Counted from the first letter of the stretch, positions 777 to 44,045 are shown. The stretch: DNA of 64,000 bases from a virus (IMGVR_UViG_3300028603_000017:128001-192000), one strand, 5' to 3'. Notes: generated by a model from the letters alone, not told the origin. Numbers and translations: made by a program.

Positions 777-2835
777 ATGAGTGATTTCGCAGTTCCCTTT
801 AATATTTATCTACTAAACCTCACTCCTGATAAGTTAGCAGGTATGATACCTGTGACTTCTTTGGATATATTTGAGGGTATGTCCAGGAATTTACATAATG
901 ACGGTCTTTTCTCTATACCTATCTTTGGTAGAATCGGCTCTCCAGCTCGCACAAGCCGATATAGCTACATCGATATCAAGGTACCAATATTTCACCCAAC
1001 AATATATCGATCTTTGCTACAACTCAAGAGTCTTTATGGAGAAATCTTACAAGGCAAATCTTACGCTATTTGGAATGATGAAGTAAAAGACTTTGTTAAA
1101 TCATCTCAGTTAGATGGTGAAACAGGGTTTGAGTTCTTTGTTACGCATTGGAAAGATATCGTCTTTGAGTCTAGACCGAGTGACTTAAGAGCTAAAAATA
1201 TTGAGCTAATCGATAAGTACAAAGACATTGCTTTAATGGATAAAGTTATCGTAATGCCTGCTGGCTATAGAGATATTGAGATTGAAGACGATAGAATTAC
1301 CGTAAATGAAATCAACGATCTCTATAAAAAGCTCTTAAGAGTATCCAATACCATCTTACCTATTACAGTAAAAGACGATATTGAAATGCTCAATGGTGCT
1401 AGATACAGTATGCAAAATACATTCAATCAAATCTACGATATGATTGAGTCTATGATCAAAGGTAAGAAAAAGCTCATGATGGGTAAATGGGCTAGCCGTA
1501 AAATCTTTAACGGCACCAGAAACGTGATTACGTCTTCTGATATTCGCTCAGATGAATTAAATGCTCCCAATAACGTAGGTTTTAACGACACTATTTGTGG
1601 TCTATACCAATACATTAAAGCAACCCTGCCTTTAGCTATTGCTAAACTACGTACTGGTTTTCTAAGCAATGTCTTTGTATCTGCACAGTCACCTGCTTAC
1701 TTAACAGATAAAAAGACACTCAAGAAAGTAGAAGTTAAAATAGATAACGATGTCTTTGACAGATGGATGAGTGATGAAGGACTAGAAAAAGTCATTAGTC
1801 TATTTTCAGAAGAATCTATCAGACACGACTATTTAGAAGTCAATGATCACTATATTGGCTTAGTATATAAAGGACCTGGTGTCTTTAAATTCTTCCAAGA
1901 TATAGATGAGTTACCTGAAGAATATAGTAAGGACGATGTTTATCCGATTACTTTCACGGAACTCATTTACGGCTCTGTATACCATGACGCTCATTTATAC
2001 CCAGCTCTAGTGACACGGTATCCTGTCACTGGGTTTGGTAGTATCTATGTCTCTAATATCTATCTAAAGCCTACTCTTAAGGTAGAGAAAAGAGCTCCCT
2101 TAGGAGATGATTGGCAAATAGATCCCTATAAACCTATTGCTTATAACTTTCCTACTAAATCTGATTTCGTAAATGCGATGTCTCCTAGTCCGAGTAAATT
2201 ACAAAATCTCGGAGCTGATAATCGAATGGTATTTTCTTAATTTATTCATAGAACACTATGTTTAAAAGGTATGTTTACGTAAACATATTTGAAACTGTAG
2301 TGGGTTTCAAGAAAATCCAATCGTTTTGTCCTACCTTACAGTAATGTAAGGATAGAATCTCCTTTAATTGCTAGAAAGCCCTTAGAGCTTAACTACCACT
2401 GCGAGCAGTAATGCAAAGCGACAGCTCTACCTAATTGGTAAAGCCATGGTTTGAAAAGTGTTAAGATTGGGTAACCAGCAGCGAAGCTACCCTAATAGGT
2501 AGAACGTTCAACGATCAACCCTTTAGCAAGGTGTACACTCAAGTGAGTGGAAATGGGGAGCTACCTGTTATGCAGGTAGAAGATATGATCTACTCTATAT
2601 GGAAACATATAGCAGGCTATTGTGCCGGACTAAGATTAACGACCTTAGTTGAATACATAGGTTTGATGGAGATACTTGTTCACTAAATATTCTCTATTCT
2701 GATGAAAGTATAAGTGAGACTAGAAAATACATGCAATCTGCTAAGTATTACGTAGGCTCTAATGGTAAGATTAACTTTAGCGCTGAGACTGATACTACTA
2801 AATTCGTTTTACACAATCTAACATCGGATGTTTAA
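777..2835 (+). CDS. Virion RNA polymerase beta'-N subunit (RpoC-like, phiKZ gp180-like), spliced: exons 777-2219 and 2662-2835, 538 aa
   Basis: Motifs GLFSIPIFG, KGKKKLMMGKWASRKI and VTRYP. Exon 1 ends LGAD. Removing 2220-2661 joins FDGDTCSLNILYSDES...LTSDV*, restoring the catalytic ADFDGD in frame. Confidence 0.92.
2220..2661 (+). mobile_element. Group I intron 1 (442 nt, no homing endonuclease ORF)
   Basis: 5' exon ends in U (GAU) and the intron ends in G. Core elements: AATTGCTAGAAA (P), AACCAGCAG (Q), TTCAACGATCA (R), AAGATATGATC (S). Two hairpins between P7 and P3'. Excision restores DFDGD. Confidence 0.92.
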
Positions 2836-2836
2836 T

Positions 2837-5800
2837 ATGGCAGCTCCTGCTATACCCTTTGAGAGTTACTATAGAAAAAACGGCCTAAGATCTCCTCAGT
2901 ATCTGATGGCTCCTAGGATGCCTAGTATTGAAAGCTTCTTTTTCCCTAAAGACTCTATTCACCATTATGTTGTTTATGATGGTGTGTCTAAGCATCCTGC
3001 TAGTGATGAGTACTTTTACAGAGATATTCAAAAGAAGATCTTTGTACAACATATTCCTGATATCAAAGATAATAAAGGCTCTCCTAGAAAATTAGCTATT
3101 CCTGTGATGCCTATGATTAGGGAATTTCACATCAGGAATAAAAGGTTTAGATTACTAGAAAAGCTCTCTAGTGTCAAGGATGAAAATACTTTAGTTACAA
3201 TTAACTATGGTTTTGCTCCTGTAGGATACAAATACGTAAAGTCTTTTTATGCTAACTACTACAAGTGGTGGAATATTGAAAAGACACTTTGGAGTACTTT
3301 AGATAGCATTACCAAAGAAAGTAATCGACAAAACTTTATCTTTACCAACTTACCTAAGACTTTACCTAGTGTATCTCGTCTTAATATGTTTTCTGATACT
3401 TTTAATCAGGAGATGGTAAAGCGGTTTAATACACCCGAATCTCTATTTCTATTAGAGATGTGGAAGTGGCTATCTGCTGAGAATAGAGGTAATTCTATCA
3501 TTGGCAACATGGGTCATAACCAATTAAAGAAAATTAATATTGTCATACAAGAATCTGGACGATATATATTGGTTAATCTAGGTGAGTTAAATAGCTGGAG
3601 AGCAGAAACTACTGATGTACCAGAGCAAAAGATACGGATTGACTCTAGTGCTTTACAAAAGCGATTCCTAAGAATGTTGATGACATTAATGGAAAACCGC
3701 ACTGTAGTAGACGCTCAATTGGTAGATGATGAAGTAGATGGTAATATTCCAGATACACCTATCGATAGCGATCCAGACCTGAGTGATCTAGATAGTCTAG
3801 AAAAAGATACTACCACTCCCACATCTGCACCATATGTAGATACAGATGCAGATATGGTAGCTGGTAAAGGCGATTTTATCAATCTGGATGAGAAAGACAG
3901 TGAAGTTAAAGAATTAACCAAAGCTGAGAAAATCAATGAATTAATTGATAATCTGGATAATGACCTACAGGCATTAGAGATTATTGAAAATGAAAAAGAC
4001 AATATTCTACTGGATGAGGAAATAGAAGATAAGAAGATTTCTAAAGAAATCTCTATCAGTCATTCAGATAAAGCTATTGAATTTGATTTCTTTAATAAAG
4101 AACTCAATCCTGAAGACAGAATTGTTAATCTCTGTAATGAATTAGCTGACGATGGGTTAATGACAGCTAGTGAATATAGGCGTTTAACCAATAATGCTGA
4201 TAATTATAAACGCTTGCCTAGTCCGTACGATAGTGGAAAATCATTAGCTGAATTTGGTGAAATTAAACCAGAAGAGATAGCTATTACTGAATCTGCTAAA
4301 ACAGTAGACAGGAACACCATTATTGATAAGACCATGTTATCATCTAGTCTATTAGACTTTGATGAAAGATACATTAAAAATATCTTACCTAAAGATATTG
4401 TCAATATGGTAACAGCTGCCCAAAATGCTGGATTCATTATATCTAAATACGAAGTAGAGCCTATTGAAGATATTCTAGGTAAATACGAATCTCACACTGT
4501 TCGCATTGCTCCTATTCAAGGTCAACCTAGTACTCTACGATTTAAGATACCTAAGGTTGAGGAAGACGGTGTTTATGTTAGCTCAGGTATCCGCTATAGG
4601 CTTCGTAAACAGCGGTTTGACCTTCCTATTCGTAAGATATCTCCAGATCGTGTTGCTCTATCGTCCTACTATGGTAAAACTCTAGTTACTCGCAGCGATA
4701 AGAAAGTTAATGATTACGGAGCATGGCTATCTAAAAACATAATTGCCAAAGCTATTGATAATACTGATCCTAATGTGATCAACTTATCTGCTGGTGATGT
4801 ATTTGTTAACGATGTAAACTTACCTAGAAGTTATACAGCTATTTCAATGGCTATTAGAGGATTTACCTCTAATGGATTTAACTTTAACTTTGATTATAAT
4901 AATAGAGTTGAGTTCTTTGGTCAGGAAAACATTGACAAGTATGAAAAAAATGGCTATACATTAGTAGCAGATAATGCTACTAATGAGTTTTTGGTCATTG
5001 ATCAAAATAATGTTCTATATAAAGTAGCTAACGATACTTTAGATCCAGTAGGTTCTATTGAATCCTTTATTGGTTTAGATATTGCTAATGCTCCTGTAGA
5101 CTTTGCTCAAATTAAAGTATTTGGCAAAAATATACCTCTGGTATTAATATTGGGCTATATGTACGGATTAGAAAATCTAATCAATGTACTAAAAGCCGAT
5201 GTCCGTAGAGTCTCTAGTGGTCAAAGACAGAATCTGCAAGAACACGAATACGCTATTGCTTTCAGTGATGAAACTCTGATCTTTAGCAAAGATGACGAAT
5301 TAGCTGCTATGATATTCTCTGGTTTTAGAGAATATGCTAAACATATCAGAAATTATTCTGTTTATACTTTCGATAAACCTAACGTTTATTTGAATGTATT
5401 AGAATCTAATGGAATTGGTATTAGGTACTTAAGAGAAGTAGATTTAATGGACAAAATGTTCGTTGATCCTATTACTAAAGAAATTTTAGTAGAGATGAAA
5501 GAACCTACTACTTTCAGAGGCTTGATTGTCAGAGCTGCCCAGCTGCTACTCAAAGACGCTCATCCGGATGCTTTAGATATGCAGTTCATGCGTATTAAGG
5601 GCTATGAGAGATTTGCTGGTGCTATATATGCTGAGTTAGTTAATTCCGTTAGAGAACATAACTCTAAAGCTGGTAAAGCTAATCAACAGATTGAATTACA
5701 TCCTTATGCTGTTTGGAAGAGGATTACGGCAGATCCTAGTATTAACTTAGTATCTGATATCAATCCGATTGAAAACTTAAAACAACAAGAAGCAGTTACT

Positions 5801-7768
5801 TATTCTGGTACAGGCGGTAGAGTATCTCGCTCGATGACAAAATCTTCTAGAGCTTATCACCCTAACGATATGGGTGTAATCTCTGAAGCTACTGTTGATA
5901 GTTCCGACGTAGCTATTAATACCTATACTTCTGCTGATCCTCAATTCGTATCACTACGAGGTAGGGCTAAGAAATATAACTTTGATGAACAAAATCCTAC
6001 TGCTGTACTAAGCACTAGCGCTTTAACTGCTGTAGGTAGTGATAGTGACGACCCCAAGCGCGTATTGACTTGCGCATTCTTCTCTAATTGCTGGAAACCC
6101 CTAAAACTAGTTAAACTACTGCGAGCAGTAATGCAAAGCGAATGTTTAAAAATTAACTAGATGTTACAATGGGCAATCAGCAGCTAAGCTGGCTGTTTAA
6201 CAGGCAGAAAGTTCAACGACTAGTCGAAAGACGTACATTCAATCGAATGGAAATGGGAAGACTACTTATTTAAGTAGAAGATATAGTCTGGCCTATATGG
6301 AAACATATAGCTGCGCGTAATGGCGCGAAACTACGCAATTGTATTAAGTTAAGACATTTAATACATTAGATAACGTAGTTTGAACACTCGCAAAATTTTA
6401 TTAATATTCAGAATACTCATTCGACTGCTTGTAGTGGATATATGCAAGCTCCTGTGCGTACTGGATATGAATCAGTCTTGGGTCAAAGAACTTCTGATCT
6501 ATTTTGTTATTCTGCTAGACAGAAAGGCAAAGTTATATCTAAGAAAGATAATAGTATTCTAATCGAATACGAAGACGGCACTCAAAAAGGAATACAGTTA
6601 GGTAGACGCTTTGGCGCAGCAGCTGGTCTAACTATTGCTCACAATGTTGTTAGCGATATGAAAGTAGGTCAAGAATTCAATCGTGGCGATATCATTGCTT
6701 ATAACGACGGATTCTTTGAAAAGGATATACTCAATCCTGATAATGTTATTTTAAAAAATGCTGTTCTAGCTAAAACCGTTTTATGGGAGTCTACTCAGAC
6801 TCATGAGGACGCTAGCAGTATTTCTAGGAAACTAGCTGATAAGCTTAGTACTAAAATTACTAAGGTCAAACAAGTTGTTATTAGCTTTGAACAAGAAGTT
6901 AAAGATATCTTAAAGCCTGGTAGTGACGTAGAGCATCAAACAATTCTATGTACAATTGAAGATCCCTTGACTTCAGGTGCTGGACTATTTGATGAAAGTA
7001 CTTTATCTACATTAAAAATGTTTAGCAATCAAACACCTCAAGCTAAAACAAAAGGTGTGTTAGAGAAGATTGAAGTTTTCTATAATGGCGAAAAAGAAGA
7101 CATGAGTGACAGCTTAAGAGCATTGGCTGACGCTGGTGATAGAGCTTTGGCTAGTCAATTCAGGTCTTTGGGTAAGCGCCCAATGACAGGTCAGGTAGAT
7201 GAGGGTTACCGTATTGACGGAGATCCTTTACAGTTAGATCACTTAGTTATTAAGTTTTATCTAACGACTGATGTGTCAGCAGGTGTTGGTGATCGACTTG
7301 GTCCTATTTGTTAGTAATAGCAAAATAGATTTCTCCTTAATTGCTGGGAACTCCTACTTCAGTAGGACAATCAGCAGCCGAACTATCTACTTATAGATAG
7401 AGGGTTCAACGACTATCCCCTAACCAGGGAGTACACTCAAGTGAGTGGAAACAGGAGACTGCCTGTATAACAGGCAGAAGATATAGTCTGCTCTGTATAG
7501 TAATATACAGCAGTACCTTATGGTACGGATAAGGATTAACGACCCTTATTGAACACACAGGAAAGGCGTTTTCGCTAATCAAATGAAGACCGTATTCTCT
7601 GAAGTTATGGATTACGAGATGAGAACAGAGTCTGGTGAAGAGATCGATGCTGTTTTCGGACAGAAGTCTATTGATGATCGTATTGTGTTGTCTGCCTTAA
7701 CAATTGGTACAACAAATACACTGCTTGATGTGATTGCTAAAAAAGCAGTCAAGATTTACGAAAGCTAA
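2837..7768 (+). CDS. Virion RNA polymerase beta subunit (RpoB-like, phiKZ gp178-like), spliced: exons ~2837-6061, ~6391-7293, 7562-7768, about 1444 aa
   Basis: Three ORF-track fragments (2828-6160, 6442-7314, 7583-7768) join through introns 2 and 3 to give DDPKR-x-NFINIQ...APVRTGYE...THEDAS...GVGD|KGVFANQMKT...DAVFG, which are RpoB-like conserved blocks. Confidence 0.9.
6062..6390 (+). mobile_element. Group I intron 2 (329 nt, ORF-less; boundaries uncertain by 2 nt)
   Basis: AATTGCTGGAAA, AATCAGCAG, GTTCAACGACTA and AAGATATAGTC core. Interrupts DDPKR/NFINIQ. The frame-restoring junction is non-canonical (see findings). Confidence 0.88.
7294..7561 (+). mobile_element. Group I intron 3 (268 nt, ORF-less)
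   Basis: Exon ...GGT GAT | intron ... G | AAA GGC GTT restores GDK. The IGS GUC pairs with exon GAU (U.G). P/Q/R/S core present. Confidence 0.93.
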
Positions 7769-39553: not shown

Positions 39554-41440
39554 ATGGCTATTCATGACGGCACTTCACAACAAGCCGCACAACCTCAAGC
39601 AGCTACCCAAGCCGCATTTGATGCTCCTCTAGCAGCTACTGCAGCTGCACCTCAATCGCAAGCACAACAACAAAAAATGAACCAAACTTTCTCCTTTCAC
39701 TCCAACAGCGGTATCTTCGGCACGCCTATCGGTCGCACACCTGGCACGGAAGTGCTGGTGAGCCTGCAAGAAAAGCTCACCGAAATCTACAAGCAAGCCA
39801 AGGACAGTTCTTTTGAGTTTGCGCTCTTTCCTCTGGACAAGAACAACGAACAACAGCTGTATTTCTCAGCTCTGGTTGTTCTGGGTTTTGTACGTGGCGA
39901 TCGCAAGAACGCTGCCTACCACACCCTGATTCTGGAAGCTTCCAACGACGATCCAGGCTCTATCCATCAGCAAGTCCAAAACGACATGATCGAAGTGATT
40001 CGTGTTGCTTCGGATGCTTCGGATAACGAACTCAACAAGATCGCTGTGGAAAAGCTGACTCAAGCTTTCCCTGGCGTGCAGCTGTTTAACGCTGACTCTA
40101 TGGTTGTTCCTCGAAAGTTCAACCTGGAAGACAAGACAGCGGTGCACAATTTGGCACTGAACGCTGCTATGGCCAGTACCACGGAGCTGCGCAAGCGCAC
40201 TCCTGGTTATAGCGATCTGAATATGGCTGGCTTTGCTCGTGACTCTAGCCTGGTGGTAACACCTCGCTTTGAAACCAGCACTGTCAAGAACATTGATGAG
40301 CTGCCTCGTCGTCAAGACGTCAAGATCGTGTTTGGCTCTCAACAAGTCAAGCAACAAAACAACCAGTCTCTGAATTCAGGTGATCGTTCTGCTGCTCTGG
40401 CAGAGATCTCTGGCTATATTGACCTGCTGTGGGCTCCGGTTAATCCCGTGGCTCAATACGGTATGATGCCTGTGCCTGGCTATCAGATGCCTGCTCAAAA
40501 GTATGCAGCTAACCTGATCATTACCAACTTCTTCAGCCCTCGCCTGTCGACTCTGGCCGGTGTTCTGCTGGCTCTGACCACCGTCAAGGCTTTCTCCGAT
40601 CAGAACAACTGGTACGGTGCTTTCCGATCCAACGGCGTGCGTAGCAATATGCGCGATATTGGTTATCTGAACATCGAAGCCAATCTGGGTGGTGACCCGA
40701 ACCAGCCTGGCTCTCCTGTGGAAATCTCTATGGATTCCTACGGTGCGGCAGATCTGTATCGTTATCTGAACCAGCTGATCCGTCCGGGTCTGGCTATTTC
40801 GATTGACGTGCCTGAGTCTGGTCCTGAGTCCTGGCTGCTCTCAGTTCTGAGCGTAGCTGCCTCTGGCAGTGAGCACTCTGGTGATGCACAGCGCATGATC
40901 TTCAACGCTGCTCAAACGCTAACCAACGGTAACTTTGCGAATTTCTTCCCGCAAGGTGCATCCATGTTCGACAACGTTGGTAACCCTGTACATCTTGGTT
41001 ACTACGAGTCCGACAAGGATACCTACCGTGATATCCGTGATATCGACTACGTGGCTGTCGCTGCTCTGAGTCGTGATCTGGATAGCATCAAGCGCTGGTC
41101 TGATACCTGGACGGCTACGTCTGTTCCTCTGGGCAAGCGCATGGATACCCGTCAGCGCTTCATCCGTGATCTGACTGGTGGTAAGGCTGTGTTTACTGGT
41201 AAGGCTAACCGCGTTACCTTTAGCGCTGCTTTCATCGATGCTCTGGTCAAGGGCTGCGCGGCTGTGGGTGTTACGCCTCGTCTGGACGCCAATGGTCTGG
41301 GTAATGTGGTGGTGGATCGCGGCACCGCGTCCTTCATCGATCAAGCTCTGGTGGGTCCTGCACCTACTAACTTCTTCAGCTCCGGTATTGTGGGTGGCTA
41401 TACCAATAGCTATGCTCCCAACAACTTCCGTACCTGGTAA
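39554..41440 (+). CDS. chmA: Chimallin, major phage nuclear shell protein (phiKZ gp54-like)
   Basis: 628 aa with an A/Q-rich disordered N-terminus and strongly biased codons; YRDIRDIDY and TGKANRVTF; located between DNA polymerase and nvRNAP beta'-N. Confidence 0.85.
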   Translation: MAIHDGTSQQAAQPQAATQAAFDAPLAATAAAPQSQAQQQKMNQTFSFHSNSGIFGTPIGRTPGTEVLVSLQEKLTEIYKQAKDSSFEFALFPLDKNNEQQLYFSALVVLGFVRGDRKNAAYHTLILEASNDDPGSIHQQVQNDMIEVIRVASDASDNELNKIAVEKLTQAFPGVQLFNADSMVVPRKFNLEDKTAVHNLALNAAMASTTELRKRTPGYSDLNMAGFARDSSLVVTPRFETSTVKNIDELPRRQDVKIVFGSQQVKQQNNQSLNSGDRSAALAEISGYIDLLWAPVNPVAQYGMMPVPGYQMPAQKYAANLIITNFFSPRLSTLAGVLLALTTVKAFSDQNNWYGAFRSNGVRSNMRDIGYLNIEANLGGDPNQPGSPVEISMDSYGAADLYRYLNQLIRPGLAISIDVPESGPESWLLSVLSVAASGSEHSGDAQRMIFNAAQTLTNGNFANFFPQGASMFDNVGNPVHLGYYESDKDTYRDIRDIDYVAVAALSRDLDSIKRWSDTWTATSVPLGKRMDTRQRFIRDLTGGKAVFTGKANRVTFSAAFIDALVKGCAAVGVTPRLDANGLGNVVVDRGTASFIDQALVGPAPTNFFSSGIVGGYTNSYAPNNFRTW

Positions 41441-42086: not shown

Positions 42087-44045
42087 GTGGCTGTATCTGA
42101 AGAGTTAGTTAATTTCAACCAGCTATTTAATCAGCTAAAGCAACCTCCCTTGATTATCAACGATATTGTTGAGACATCAGCAGAGGAAAAAGATACACTG
42201 AAGAATCTGATATTTACTAAGTATGATTCTGATGTGATGAAAAACGTACCTAGCTGTGACTGTGGTAGTATCACAGGTGAATACAATATCGGTGTTCTAT
42301 GTAAAAACTGTGATACCGAAGTTGTATCAGCTGTAGATAAAGAGCTAGAGCCTATTCTTTGGGTAAGAGCGCCTAAGAATATTCATGCATTAATTAATCC
42401 TACTGTTTGGACTCAGTTATCTCTGAGATTCAAGAAGAGTAATTTTGATACTATTCGCTGGATTTGTGATACAACTTATAGAGTAGGACCTAATGATGGA
42501 GCTATTGTAGCTGAGCTGCAAGAAGCTGGTATTACCAGAGGTTACAATAACTTTATTGAAAACTTTTACGATATCATCAATCGCTTATTTGAGATGAGGA
42601 GTTTTTCCTCTAAATCAAGAGTGACTTATGATCTACTACCACAATTGCTGGTAGAAAATAAAGATTCAATATTCTCTCAATATCTACCACTGGTTAACAG
42701 AACCATGCTAGTAATTGAGTCTACGACTGTTGGTACATATGTCGATCCATTTGTACCTACTGCTATTGATGCTATTTTAACAGTAGCATCAATTGATGTG
42801 GATGAATCTAGGTTTTCTATTAGGACAAAGGAAAACAGAGTTGCTAAGTTCCTATCTGGAATCAGTAGTTATTACTATAACTTTGCGAAAAACAATCTAG
42901 GTAGAAAGTCAGGCACCTATAGGCAACACGTTTATGGATCACGATCTCACTTCTCATTTAGAGCGGTGGTGTCGTCTTTAACGGACGCTCACCAGTATGA
43001 TGAGATTCATATTCCGTGGGGTATCGGAATTACTATATTTCGATATCACATCATCAATAAACTCATTCGACGAGGATATACCGTCAATCAAGCGATATAT
43101 CTGATTAATGCACACGCAAAGGTATTTCATCCACTCATTAACGAGATCTTTAAAGAACTCATTGATGAATCACCTCGTAAAGGTGTCGATGTAACTATTA
43201 ATCGAAATCCCTCTTTGGTACGTGGATCTATTCAAAGAGTGAGGATTACTAAAGTCAAAGAAGATACCTCAATCAATACTGTTTCATTCAGCATTTTGAT
43301 TGTAGGTCCCATGAACGCTAAAGATTGGTGTTCTAAAAGCTCCTTAATTGCTGGGAACTCCTGTAAAGGACAATCAGCAGCTGATCCTAGATACATATCT
43401 AGGCGAGTTCAACGACTAGTCGAAAGACGTACAGCCAAGCGGCTGGAAACAGGAGCCAGTCTCTGAATAAGAGATGGAAGATATAGTCTGAACATCTGTG
43501 GTAACACAGAGCTGGATTCACTATCCGGGTAATGCGTAGCGAACATTGCTGAACATATTTGGATTTTGACGGTGGAAGCATTGCCGTCTCGAAAGCTTTT
43601 GAATTGCTGGGAACTCTCACACCGAGACAATCAGCAGCCAAGATCTTATTTGCTTACCGGTAAATAGGATAAGGTTCAACGACTATCCCGAAAGGGAGTA
43701 CAGCCAAGCGGCTGGAAGCGGAAGCCACCAAACCAGGTGAAGATATAGTCTGAACATCTATGGTGACATAGAGCGAAGCAGGTAATGCTGCGGGTTAGGA
43801 AATAGCGAGCCTAGCTGAACAATACGGATGCCCTTAATTTCACTTTGACTTTAGATAACGATTTGTCTGAAGAGCTCAAGCATCTTGATCCACATAAGAG
43901 CTGTTTTGAACTCGATGAACCTAGAACCATCTCTGGCAATCTCTCGATTCCCAAGACAGTTGTAGGCACAATTAGTAATTGGTTACATTTTGAAGAACCT
44001 GATAACACACCCACGGACTTTATGAAGTCTATTGCAATAGGTTAA
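42087..44045 (+). CDS. Non-virion RNAP beta'-N subunit (RpoC-like, phiKZ gp55/56.1-like), spliced: exons 42087-43319, 43562-43573, 43827-44045, 487 aa
   Basis: Zn finger CDCG...CKNC, GSRSHFSFRAV and NRNPSL. Splicing gives GPMNA|DFDG|DALNFTL, i.e. NADFDGD. Confidence 0.93.
43320..43561 (+). mobile_element. Group I intron 4 (242 nt, ORF-less)
   Basis: P1: exon AACGCU pairs with IGS GGUGUU (U.G at the splice site). P10: AAGAUU pairs with exon GAUUUU. P/Q/R/S core; terminal G. Confidence 0.93.
43574..43826 (+). mobile_element. Group I intron 5 (253 nt, ORF-less)
   Basis: P1: exon GACGGU pairs with IGS GCCGUC. P10: GCAUU pairs with exon GAUGC. P/Q/R/S core; terminal G. Confidence 0.93.

Follow-up and report, generated by a model that had tools for sequence, protein, structure and literature searches.

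The stretch of DNA analysed here (the window; 64,000 nucleotides, with positions counted from its first letter) corresponds to positions 128001-192000 in an IMG/VR virus record of 261 kb, which is 95% complete by estimate. The phage is a nucleus-forming jumbo phage (chimallivirus), its chimallin (PHROG 4795) being encoded at 39554-41440. The second gene after chimallin, beginning at 42087, is a homologue of phiKZ gp55 and encodes the N-terminal part of nvRNAP beta' (PHROG 2987, E 3e-137); it is called beta'N below. A tblastn search with beta'N gave matches in 304 phage records, PHIKZ055 being among the best, and the nearest GenBank relative of the protein was found in Burkholderia phage FLC9, at merely 48% identity. 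Searching the region by megablast against GenBank phages matched only short intron cores of unrelated phages. The coding sequence is divided into three exons by two group I introns, numbered 4 and 5 by their order in the window:

42087-43319, + strand: exon 1 of the nvRNAP beta' N-terminal subunit gene, 411 codons, ending ...PMNA (PHROG 2987 positions 1-417)
43320-43561, + strand: intron 4, ORF-less group I intron of IA2 type, 242 nt, at NA|D (RF00028, 78.9 bits)
43321-43333, + strand: internal guide sequence of intron 4, 43321-43326 pairing with GAUUUU (P10) and 43327-43333 with GAACGCU (P1)
43562-43573, + strand: micro-exon GATTTTGACGGT, 12 nt, encoding the DFDG of the NADFDGD Mg-binding loop
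43574-43826, + strand: intron 5, ORF-less group I intron of IA2 type, 253 nt, at G|D (RF00028, 93.7 bits)
43578-43588, + strand: internal guide sequence of intron 5, 43578-43582 pairing with GAUGC of exon 3 (P10) and 43583-43588 with GACGGU of the micro-exon (P1)
43827-44045, + strand: exon 3, beginning GATGCC (DALNFTL...) and ending at the stop codon (PHROG 2987 positions 422-475)

Joining the three exons, as predicted for splicing, gives a protein of 487 aa. The parts of the PHROG 2987 profile matched by exons 1 and 3 are separated by a gap of exactly 4 positions, which the DFDG of the micro-exon fills, and the joined product could be aligned without gaps to the intron-less FLC9 and FLC4-3B proteins through NADFDGD(A/Q)LNF. 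Rpb1 domain 2 and the NADFDGD Mg-binding loop are both present, as in RNAP beta' subunits; the product of an intron-less allele matched PF00623 (Rpb1 domain 2) with 37.9 bits, relative to a cutoff of 25.3. The assignment to nvRNAP beta' in the original prediction was thus upheld by the homology to phiKZ gp55 and by the gapless alignment. An intact copy of the subunit elsewhere, which could have done its job, was also looked for, and no second beta'N gene was present in the 261-kb genome (95% complete by estimate). Gene callers give 412-459 aa, instead of 487, in every intron-bearing allele of this essential gene, which is an issue for annotation.

Structure of introns 4 and 5 and of the exon between them

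Rfam model RF00028 gave two separate full-length matches in this region, each covering model positions 1-253 and exceeding the gathering score of 50 bits (43309-43511, 78.9 bits, E 2e-18, for intron 4; 43541-43773, 93.7 bits, E 8e-23, for intron 5), and no single match in the window covered both introns. Each intron had the core helices of a group I intron, a U.G pair in P1, a terminal G (43561 and 43826, respectively) and a P10 with its 3' exon, while exon 1 (43319) and the micro-exon both ended in T. P1 of intron 4 is formed by GAACGCU/GGUGUUC (7 bp, terminal U.G, pairing string ||||:|:) and its P10 by GAUUUU/AAGAUU (6 bp, :||:||); for intron 5 the corresponding helices are GACGGU/GCCGUC (6 bp, terminal U.G, |||||:) and GAUGC/GCAUU (5 bp, :||||). 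Two complete ORF-less group I introns, with the boundaries given exactly as above, had been predicted at the outset together with the use of all 12 micro-exon bases in splice-site helices, and both claims held, since a base-by-base check of the pairings placed 12 of the 12 bases in either P10 or P1. The claimed status of the 12 nt as an exon encoding DFDG was likewise confirmed, by the 4-position PHROG gap and by exactly GATTTTGACGGT being found in the intron-less alleles described below.

The minimum free energy (MFE) of both introns was low relative to shuffled controls (z-scores of -3.65 for intron 4 and -4.53 for intron 5), and the MFE structures contained the core helices and two extra hairpins 3' of the 5' strand of P7. 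These hairpins correspond to P7.1 and P7.2, which in IA2 introns separate the 5' strand of P7 from the 3' strand of P3, and the insert that forms them follows GACUA; the IA2 assignment was made by inspection of the Rfam alignment and the MFE folds, rather than with a subgroup-specific model. Introns 4 and 5 were 76% identical, and each was the closest relative of the other. No ORF of at least 40 aa was present on the + strand within either intron, so that the encoded endonuclease ORF of a homing intron is missing from both; an 80-aa ORF on the minus strand of the intron region had no Pfam match.

We infer self-splicing of introns 4 and 5, and its order. The 5' splice site of intron 4 would be chosen by pairing with GAACGCU, and the first six bases of the micro-exon would be aligned as P10; for intron 5, the last six bases of the micro-exon would serve in P1, with exon 3 aligned as P10. 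A beta' fragment whose Mg-binding loop is intact would require self-splicing of both introns. Either order of splicing is possible in principle, and splicing would probably be sequential, as no more than 12 nt separate the two reactive phosphates. Omission of the micro-exon keeps the reading frame and gives NADALNF, the in-frame skipped product anticipated by the original prediction. When spliced RNA was looked for in the contigs of X13 (a metatranscriptome) and X10 (labelled as RNA-Seq), none was found and the introns were retained: a 26-kb contig of X13 carried a different allele, with its 1474-nt intron still unspliced, and the contig of X10 carried both introns.

Rfam identified five group I introns in the window, all ORF-less and all in RNAP genes. 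Intron 1 (2220-2661; RF00028, 60.1 bits) is located in the paralogue that encodes vRNAP beta' (PHROG 2986), at GAD|FDGD, the first exon ending in ...LGAD and the next beginning with FDGDTCS, so that both polymerases of the phage have an intron in the Mg-binding loop. Introns 2 and 3 (6007-6310 and 7247-7510, with approximate boundaries) are in a vRNAP beta-like gene (PHROG 3148), whose exons were placed at 2828-6160 and 6442-7314 (also approximate).

Alleles and insertion sites at the NADFDGD motif

Closely related strains were identified through the downstream gene in public assemblies from other metagenomes, their flanks being 98.5-100% identical to those of the window. Four alleles were distinguished in these strains, on metagenome contigs that came from few samples:

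No intron (L033, L032, L035): exactly the 12 nt of the micro-exon between the flanking exons, with a 487-aa product
Intron 5 only (L028, L031): intron of 252 nt, 99% identical to the copy in the window
Introns 4 and 5 (the window, L029, L034)
One 1474-nt intron inside the micro-exon, at GAT|TTT (NAD|FDG) (L030): carries a 356-aa HNH/NUMOD1 ORF of I-HmuI type, located at 2862-3932 of L030

Intron 4 was thus missing from L028, L031, L033, L032 and L035, while the L030 strain was about 99.4% identical to that of the window. The exon junctions were identical between alleles, giving the presence/absence polymorphism at a precise site in close relatives that is expected of a homing intron. An allele with intron 4 only was not found in the context look-ups of public assemblies, and none joined the HNH-bearing intron of L030 with introns 4 and 5 among the very few contigs examined. 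In run X5, the intron-less form was present at a contig depth of 9.3, and a 151-nt contig at a depth of 2.4 spanned intron 4, the micro-exon and intron 5 without mismatches; in runs X4 and X10 both introns were found on single, independent contigs. The run shares of 0.60-0.72 are compatible with forms that have neither of the two introns, and with simple divergence as well.

Some further differences were seen between contigs. The contigs of L005, L081 and L082, from two assemblies (L005 and L081 being the same JGI contig), stop exactly after the GGT of the micro-exon, probably because the assembly graph branches there when alleles are mixed in one sample, and the beta'N gene is reported as truncated where contigs end in this way. 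Intron 5 starts with GGAAGCATT in the double-intron allele and with AAAGCATT, 1 nt shorter, when alone (43574-43575 relative to position 4025 of L028). Strains also differ at 43764, in the P9 loop of intron 5, where either T or C is found. In L030, a 125-aa gene was called on the minus strand at 4081-4458, across the ribozyme core of the HNH-bearing intron; it is probably spurious.

When relatives and the window were considered together, five consecutive codon junctions of the motif AAT GCT GAT TTT GAT GGT GAT were found to be used as intron sites, the insertions following a T in most of the cases checked:

N|A: phiKZ (with gp56), L009
A|D: intron 4 of the window; also the first intron (intron A) of the tandem pairs in L041 and L057
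D|F: L015; also L030 (allele of the window species)
DFD|G: L014, L017
DFDG|D: L006, L022; also intron 5 of the window

HNH ORFs are carried by the related alleles or lineages L030, L057, L041, L006 and phiKZ, and those at four of the five sites were homologous (L030, L057, phiKZ gp56 and L006), with identities to the L030 ORF of 31% (L057), 28% (phiKZ gp56) and about 20% (L006). Another group I intron was observed near residue 375-380 of the beta'N gene, at 8580-8894 in L041 and at 2640-2889 in the cultured Pseudomonas phage Bobae (L078), and this position, some 35 codons upstream of the motif, is possibly a further insertion site common to both.

Tandem introns in other phages and in known systems

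The IMG/VR sequences were scanned with a pattern that places P4 (5' strand) of a second intron 95-125 nt downstream of P7 (3' strand) of an IA2 intron, which returned 37 viral contigs (L036-L072) with two IA2-type cores in close tandem. Three of the 37 were in beta'N genes, 35-43% identical to that of the window, and each of the three had two adjacent full-length Rfam matches:

L057: NA, 1428-nt HNH-bearing intron, micro-exon GATTTTGACGGT, 316-nt intron, DQMN
L041: NA, 343-nt intron, micro-exon GATTTCGACGGT, HNH-bearing intron
L044: NAD, 345-nt intron, micro-exon TTCGACGGT (9 nt), 391-nt intron, DALN

In all three, P1 of the second intron takes the last six bases of the micro-exon. Tandem pairs with a 12-nt or 9-nt micro-exon therefore recur in at least two other chimallivirus lineages. 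Orthology of the pairs was considered and rejected: introns 4 and 5 resemble each other (76%) and not the introns of L041, L057 or L044, which argues that tandem pairs were assembled more than once. Among the remaining contigs of the scan, L047 and L050 also had adjacent full-length Rfam matches, that of L050 being in a vRNAP beta-like gene, and one 125-nt inter-core sequence was present, exactly or with few changes, in about a dozen of the 37. Six cultured phages were sampled in addition. A single RF00028 match near the motif was found in Serratia phage 2050HW, Photobacterium phage PDCC-1, Aeromonas phage CF8 and Vibrio phage Yong MS31, and none near the motif in Vibrio phage C-ZP2022; Pseudomonas phage Bobae had two matches about 270 nt apart. 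The same tandem micro-exon was not present in any of these six, which are a sample and no survey.

The arrangement had been treated as unique in the original prediction, a view that does not stand, given its recurrence in L041, L057 and L044 and the published precedents in Twort and the Bastillevirinae. In the Twort orf142 gene, introns 2 and 3 (Landthaler & Shub 1999) enclose a 23-nt exon, the skipping of which was detected by RT-PCR, according to PMC10136302. The likeness is close: two highly similar IA2 introns (76% identical in the window) surround a very short exon (12 nt), and both splicings are needed for the full product. The Twort exon belongs to a structural gene, whereas the exon in the window is 12 nt long (9 nt in L044), encodes the catalytic DFDG of an RNAP and has all its bases engaged in P10 or P1. 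A small exon enclosed by neighbouring group I introns is also described for the Bastillevirinae (PMC11878797) and for the 23S rRNA of Coxiella (PMC10136302), and skipping was seen in phage SIOphi (PMC11878797) and for a 34-nt exon in Coxiella (PMC10136302). The genes are different, however (ribonucleotide reductase, polymerase or terminase, and rRNA), the exons are larger or of unstated size, and allelic series are not described there. Organellar micro-exons of 1-18 nt between self-splicing introns, in tandem modules, are similar in layout, but are found in fungal and placozoan mitochondrial genes, where many of the introns are group II or composite and may be spliced as one unit (PMC12308204, PMC5436844).

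Among chimalliviruses, an intron of phiKZ gp55/gp56 was predicted by Mesyanzhinov 2002, as cited in PMC10914365 and PMC11512511. The same gene and motif are split by a group I intron in phiKZ (L002; RF00028, 75.6 bits) and in the window, and a single endonuclease-bearing intron, as stated for phiKZ-like phages in the original prediction, was indeed found near the motif of phiKZ, at N|A and with the HNH gene gp56. In the window, by contrast, A|D and G|D are each occupied by an ORF-less intron. Spliced reads of the phiKZ intron were not found under the conditions of PMC10914365. PhiPA3 gp210 is likewise a chimallivirus RNAP gene with a group I intron at conserved residues of the catalytic region, and has served as a model of intron-based competition between related phages (PMC11620839). 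Unlike the introns of the window, which lack an endonuclease, that of gp210 (vRNAP beta) is a single HNH-bearing intron whose endonuclease nicks the intron-less allele of a rival (PMC11620839).

Origin and meaning of the double insertion

The pair is probably, and in our view with good confidence, the result of independent selfish invasions of one hotspot by group I introns, each splicing through its own guide, rather than a built-in regulator. The motif would have been invaded repeatedly, often by introns with homologous I-HmuI-like HNH endonucleases. Intron 4 would probably be of the same lineage as intron 5, to which it is most similar, retargeted 12 nt upstream; we infer the order of intron gain or loss, because an allele with intron 4 alone was not seen. 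That strains more than 98.5% identical lack one or both introns indicates that the pair is dispensable and polymorphic, as expected of selfish insertions. The polymorphism shows dispensability, with which a conditional benefit may be compatible.

A regulatory role had been proposed originally, in which the level of active nvRNAP would be adjusted, and middle and late transcription thereby gated, through the order or efficiency of splicing or through skipping of the micro-exon, which would give a catalytically dead delta-DFDG subunit. Skipping would keep the reading frame, the 76% identity between the introns makes a hybrid ribozyme conceivable, and exon skipping is documented around the 23-nt Twort exon and in the Bastillevirinae (PMC10136302 and PMC11878797). 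Near-identical strains nevertheless live without either intron or with one only (at about 99% identity), so that the pair is not needed for the programme of the phage, which argues against gating. The guides of introns 4 and 5 also differ and their cross pairings are poor, the guide of intron 4 pairing with exon 3 at only 3 of 6 bases and that of intron 5 with the end of exon 1 at 4 of 6 bases (two mismatches). Differing guide sequences of this kind are reported to favour exon inclusion (PMC10136302), and the combination found here should therefore favour inclusion of the micro-exon. Gating of transcription by splicing thus found no support, strains more than 98.5% identical either lacking both introns or carrying intron 5 only, and we regard such a device as very unlikely. 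An artefact, either an assembly chimera of two alleles or a composite intron (twintron) that is spliced as a unit around a 12-nt pseudo-exon, is extremely unlikely. The breaks after GGT in L005, L081 and L082 do indicate branching of the assembly graph at this point, and tandem group I modules are spliced as one unit in fungal mitochondria (PMC12308204). Both introns were nevertheless present on one contig in independent assemblies from different studies (X4, X10, L029, L034), and the 151-nt contig of X5 covered the whole junction without a mismatch. The 12 nt are real coding sequence, present in the intron-less alleles and needed by the protein alignment; intron 5 has the same boundaries when alone, and P1, P10, a terminal G and a full core are present separately in each intron. 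Twintron and chimera were both rejected for these reasons.

It is possible, if rather unlikely, that double occupancy has been kept as protection: two introns 12 nt apart would break the target of rival HNH endonucleases homing to the NADFDGD codons, so that the locus would be safe from cutting or conversion by co-infecting relatives. In a strain about 99.4% identical (L030), the micro-exon does hold a rival intron with an HNH ORF, at GAT|TTT. This intron was not combined with introns 4 and 5 in any of the contigs seen, homologous HNH genes are present in introns at four of the five motif sites, and the window's five introns are without exception ORF-less and in RNAP genes. An intron-encoded HNH endonuclease also acts as a weapon between chimalliviruses (PMC11620839). 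Against protection, intron-less alleles persist, being at a depth of 9.3 in run X5 relative to 2.4 for the double allele, and the apparent mutual exclusion of the HNH-bearing intron and introns 4 and 5 is based on very few contigs. Nickases of the I-HmuI type can rely for recognition largely on the exon sequence of one side, and are able to cut DNA in which the intron is present, which also counts against a protective effect. A more elaborate version is speculative and unlikely: in a three-way contest between introns, the ORF-less introns at A|D and G|D would bracket and destroy the D|F homing site, acting as heritable armour of the active-site codons, and the recurrence of 9- to 12-nt micro-exons would reflect selection for this armour and not chance stacking.

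Similar IA2 introns around a short exon have precedents (Twort, 23 nt; Bastillevirinae), and it is the allelic series that is unusually informative here. A partial literature search did not find a paper combining NADFDGD, a group I intron and a phage. As predicted, the catalytic Mg-binding loop of the sole nvRNAP beta' gene would hang on two ribozyme reactions 12 nt apart, a spacing tighter than in the phage cases found described (23 nt in Twort). The near-identical phages provide a natural series of four alleles, all within 12 nt. The locus is therefore a compact system for asking whether endonuclease-free introns shield a site from homing endonucleases, a question raised by the work on PhiPA3 and phiKZ, and would also allow one to examine by what means exon skipping is avoided when group I introns are adjacent.
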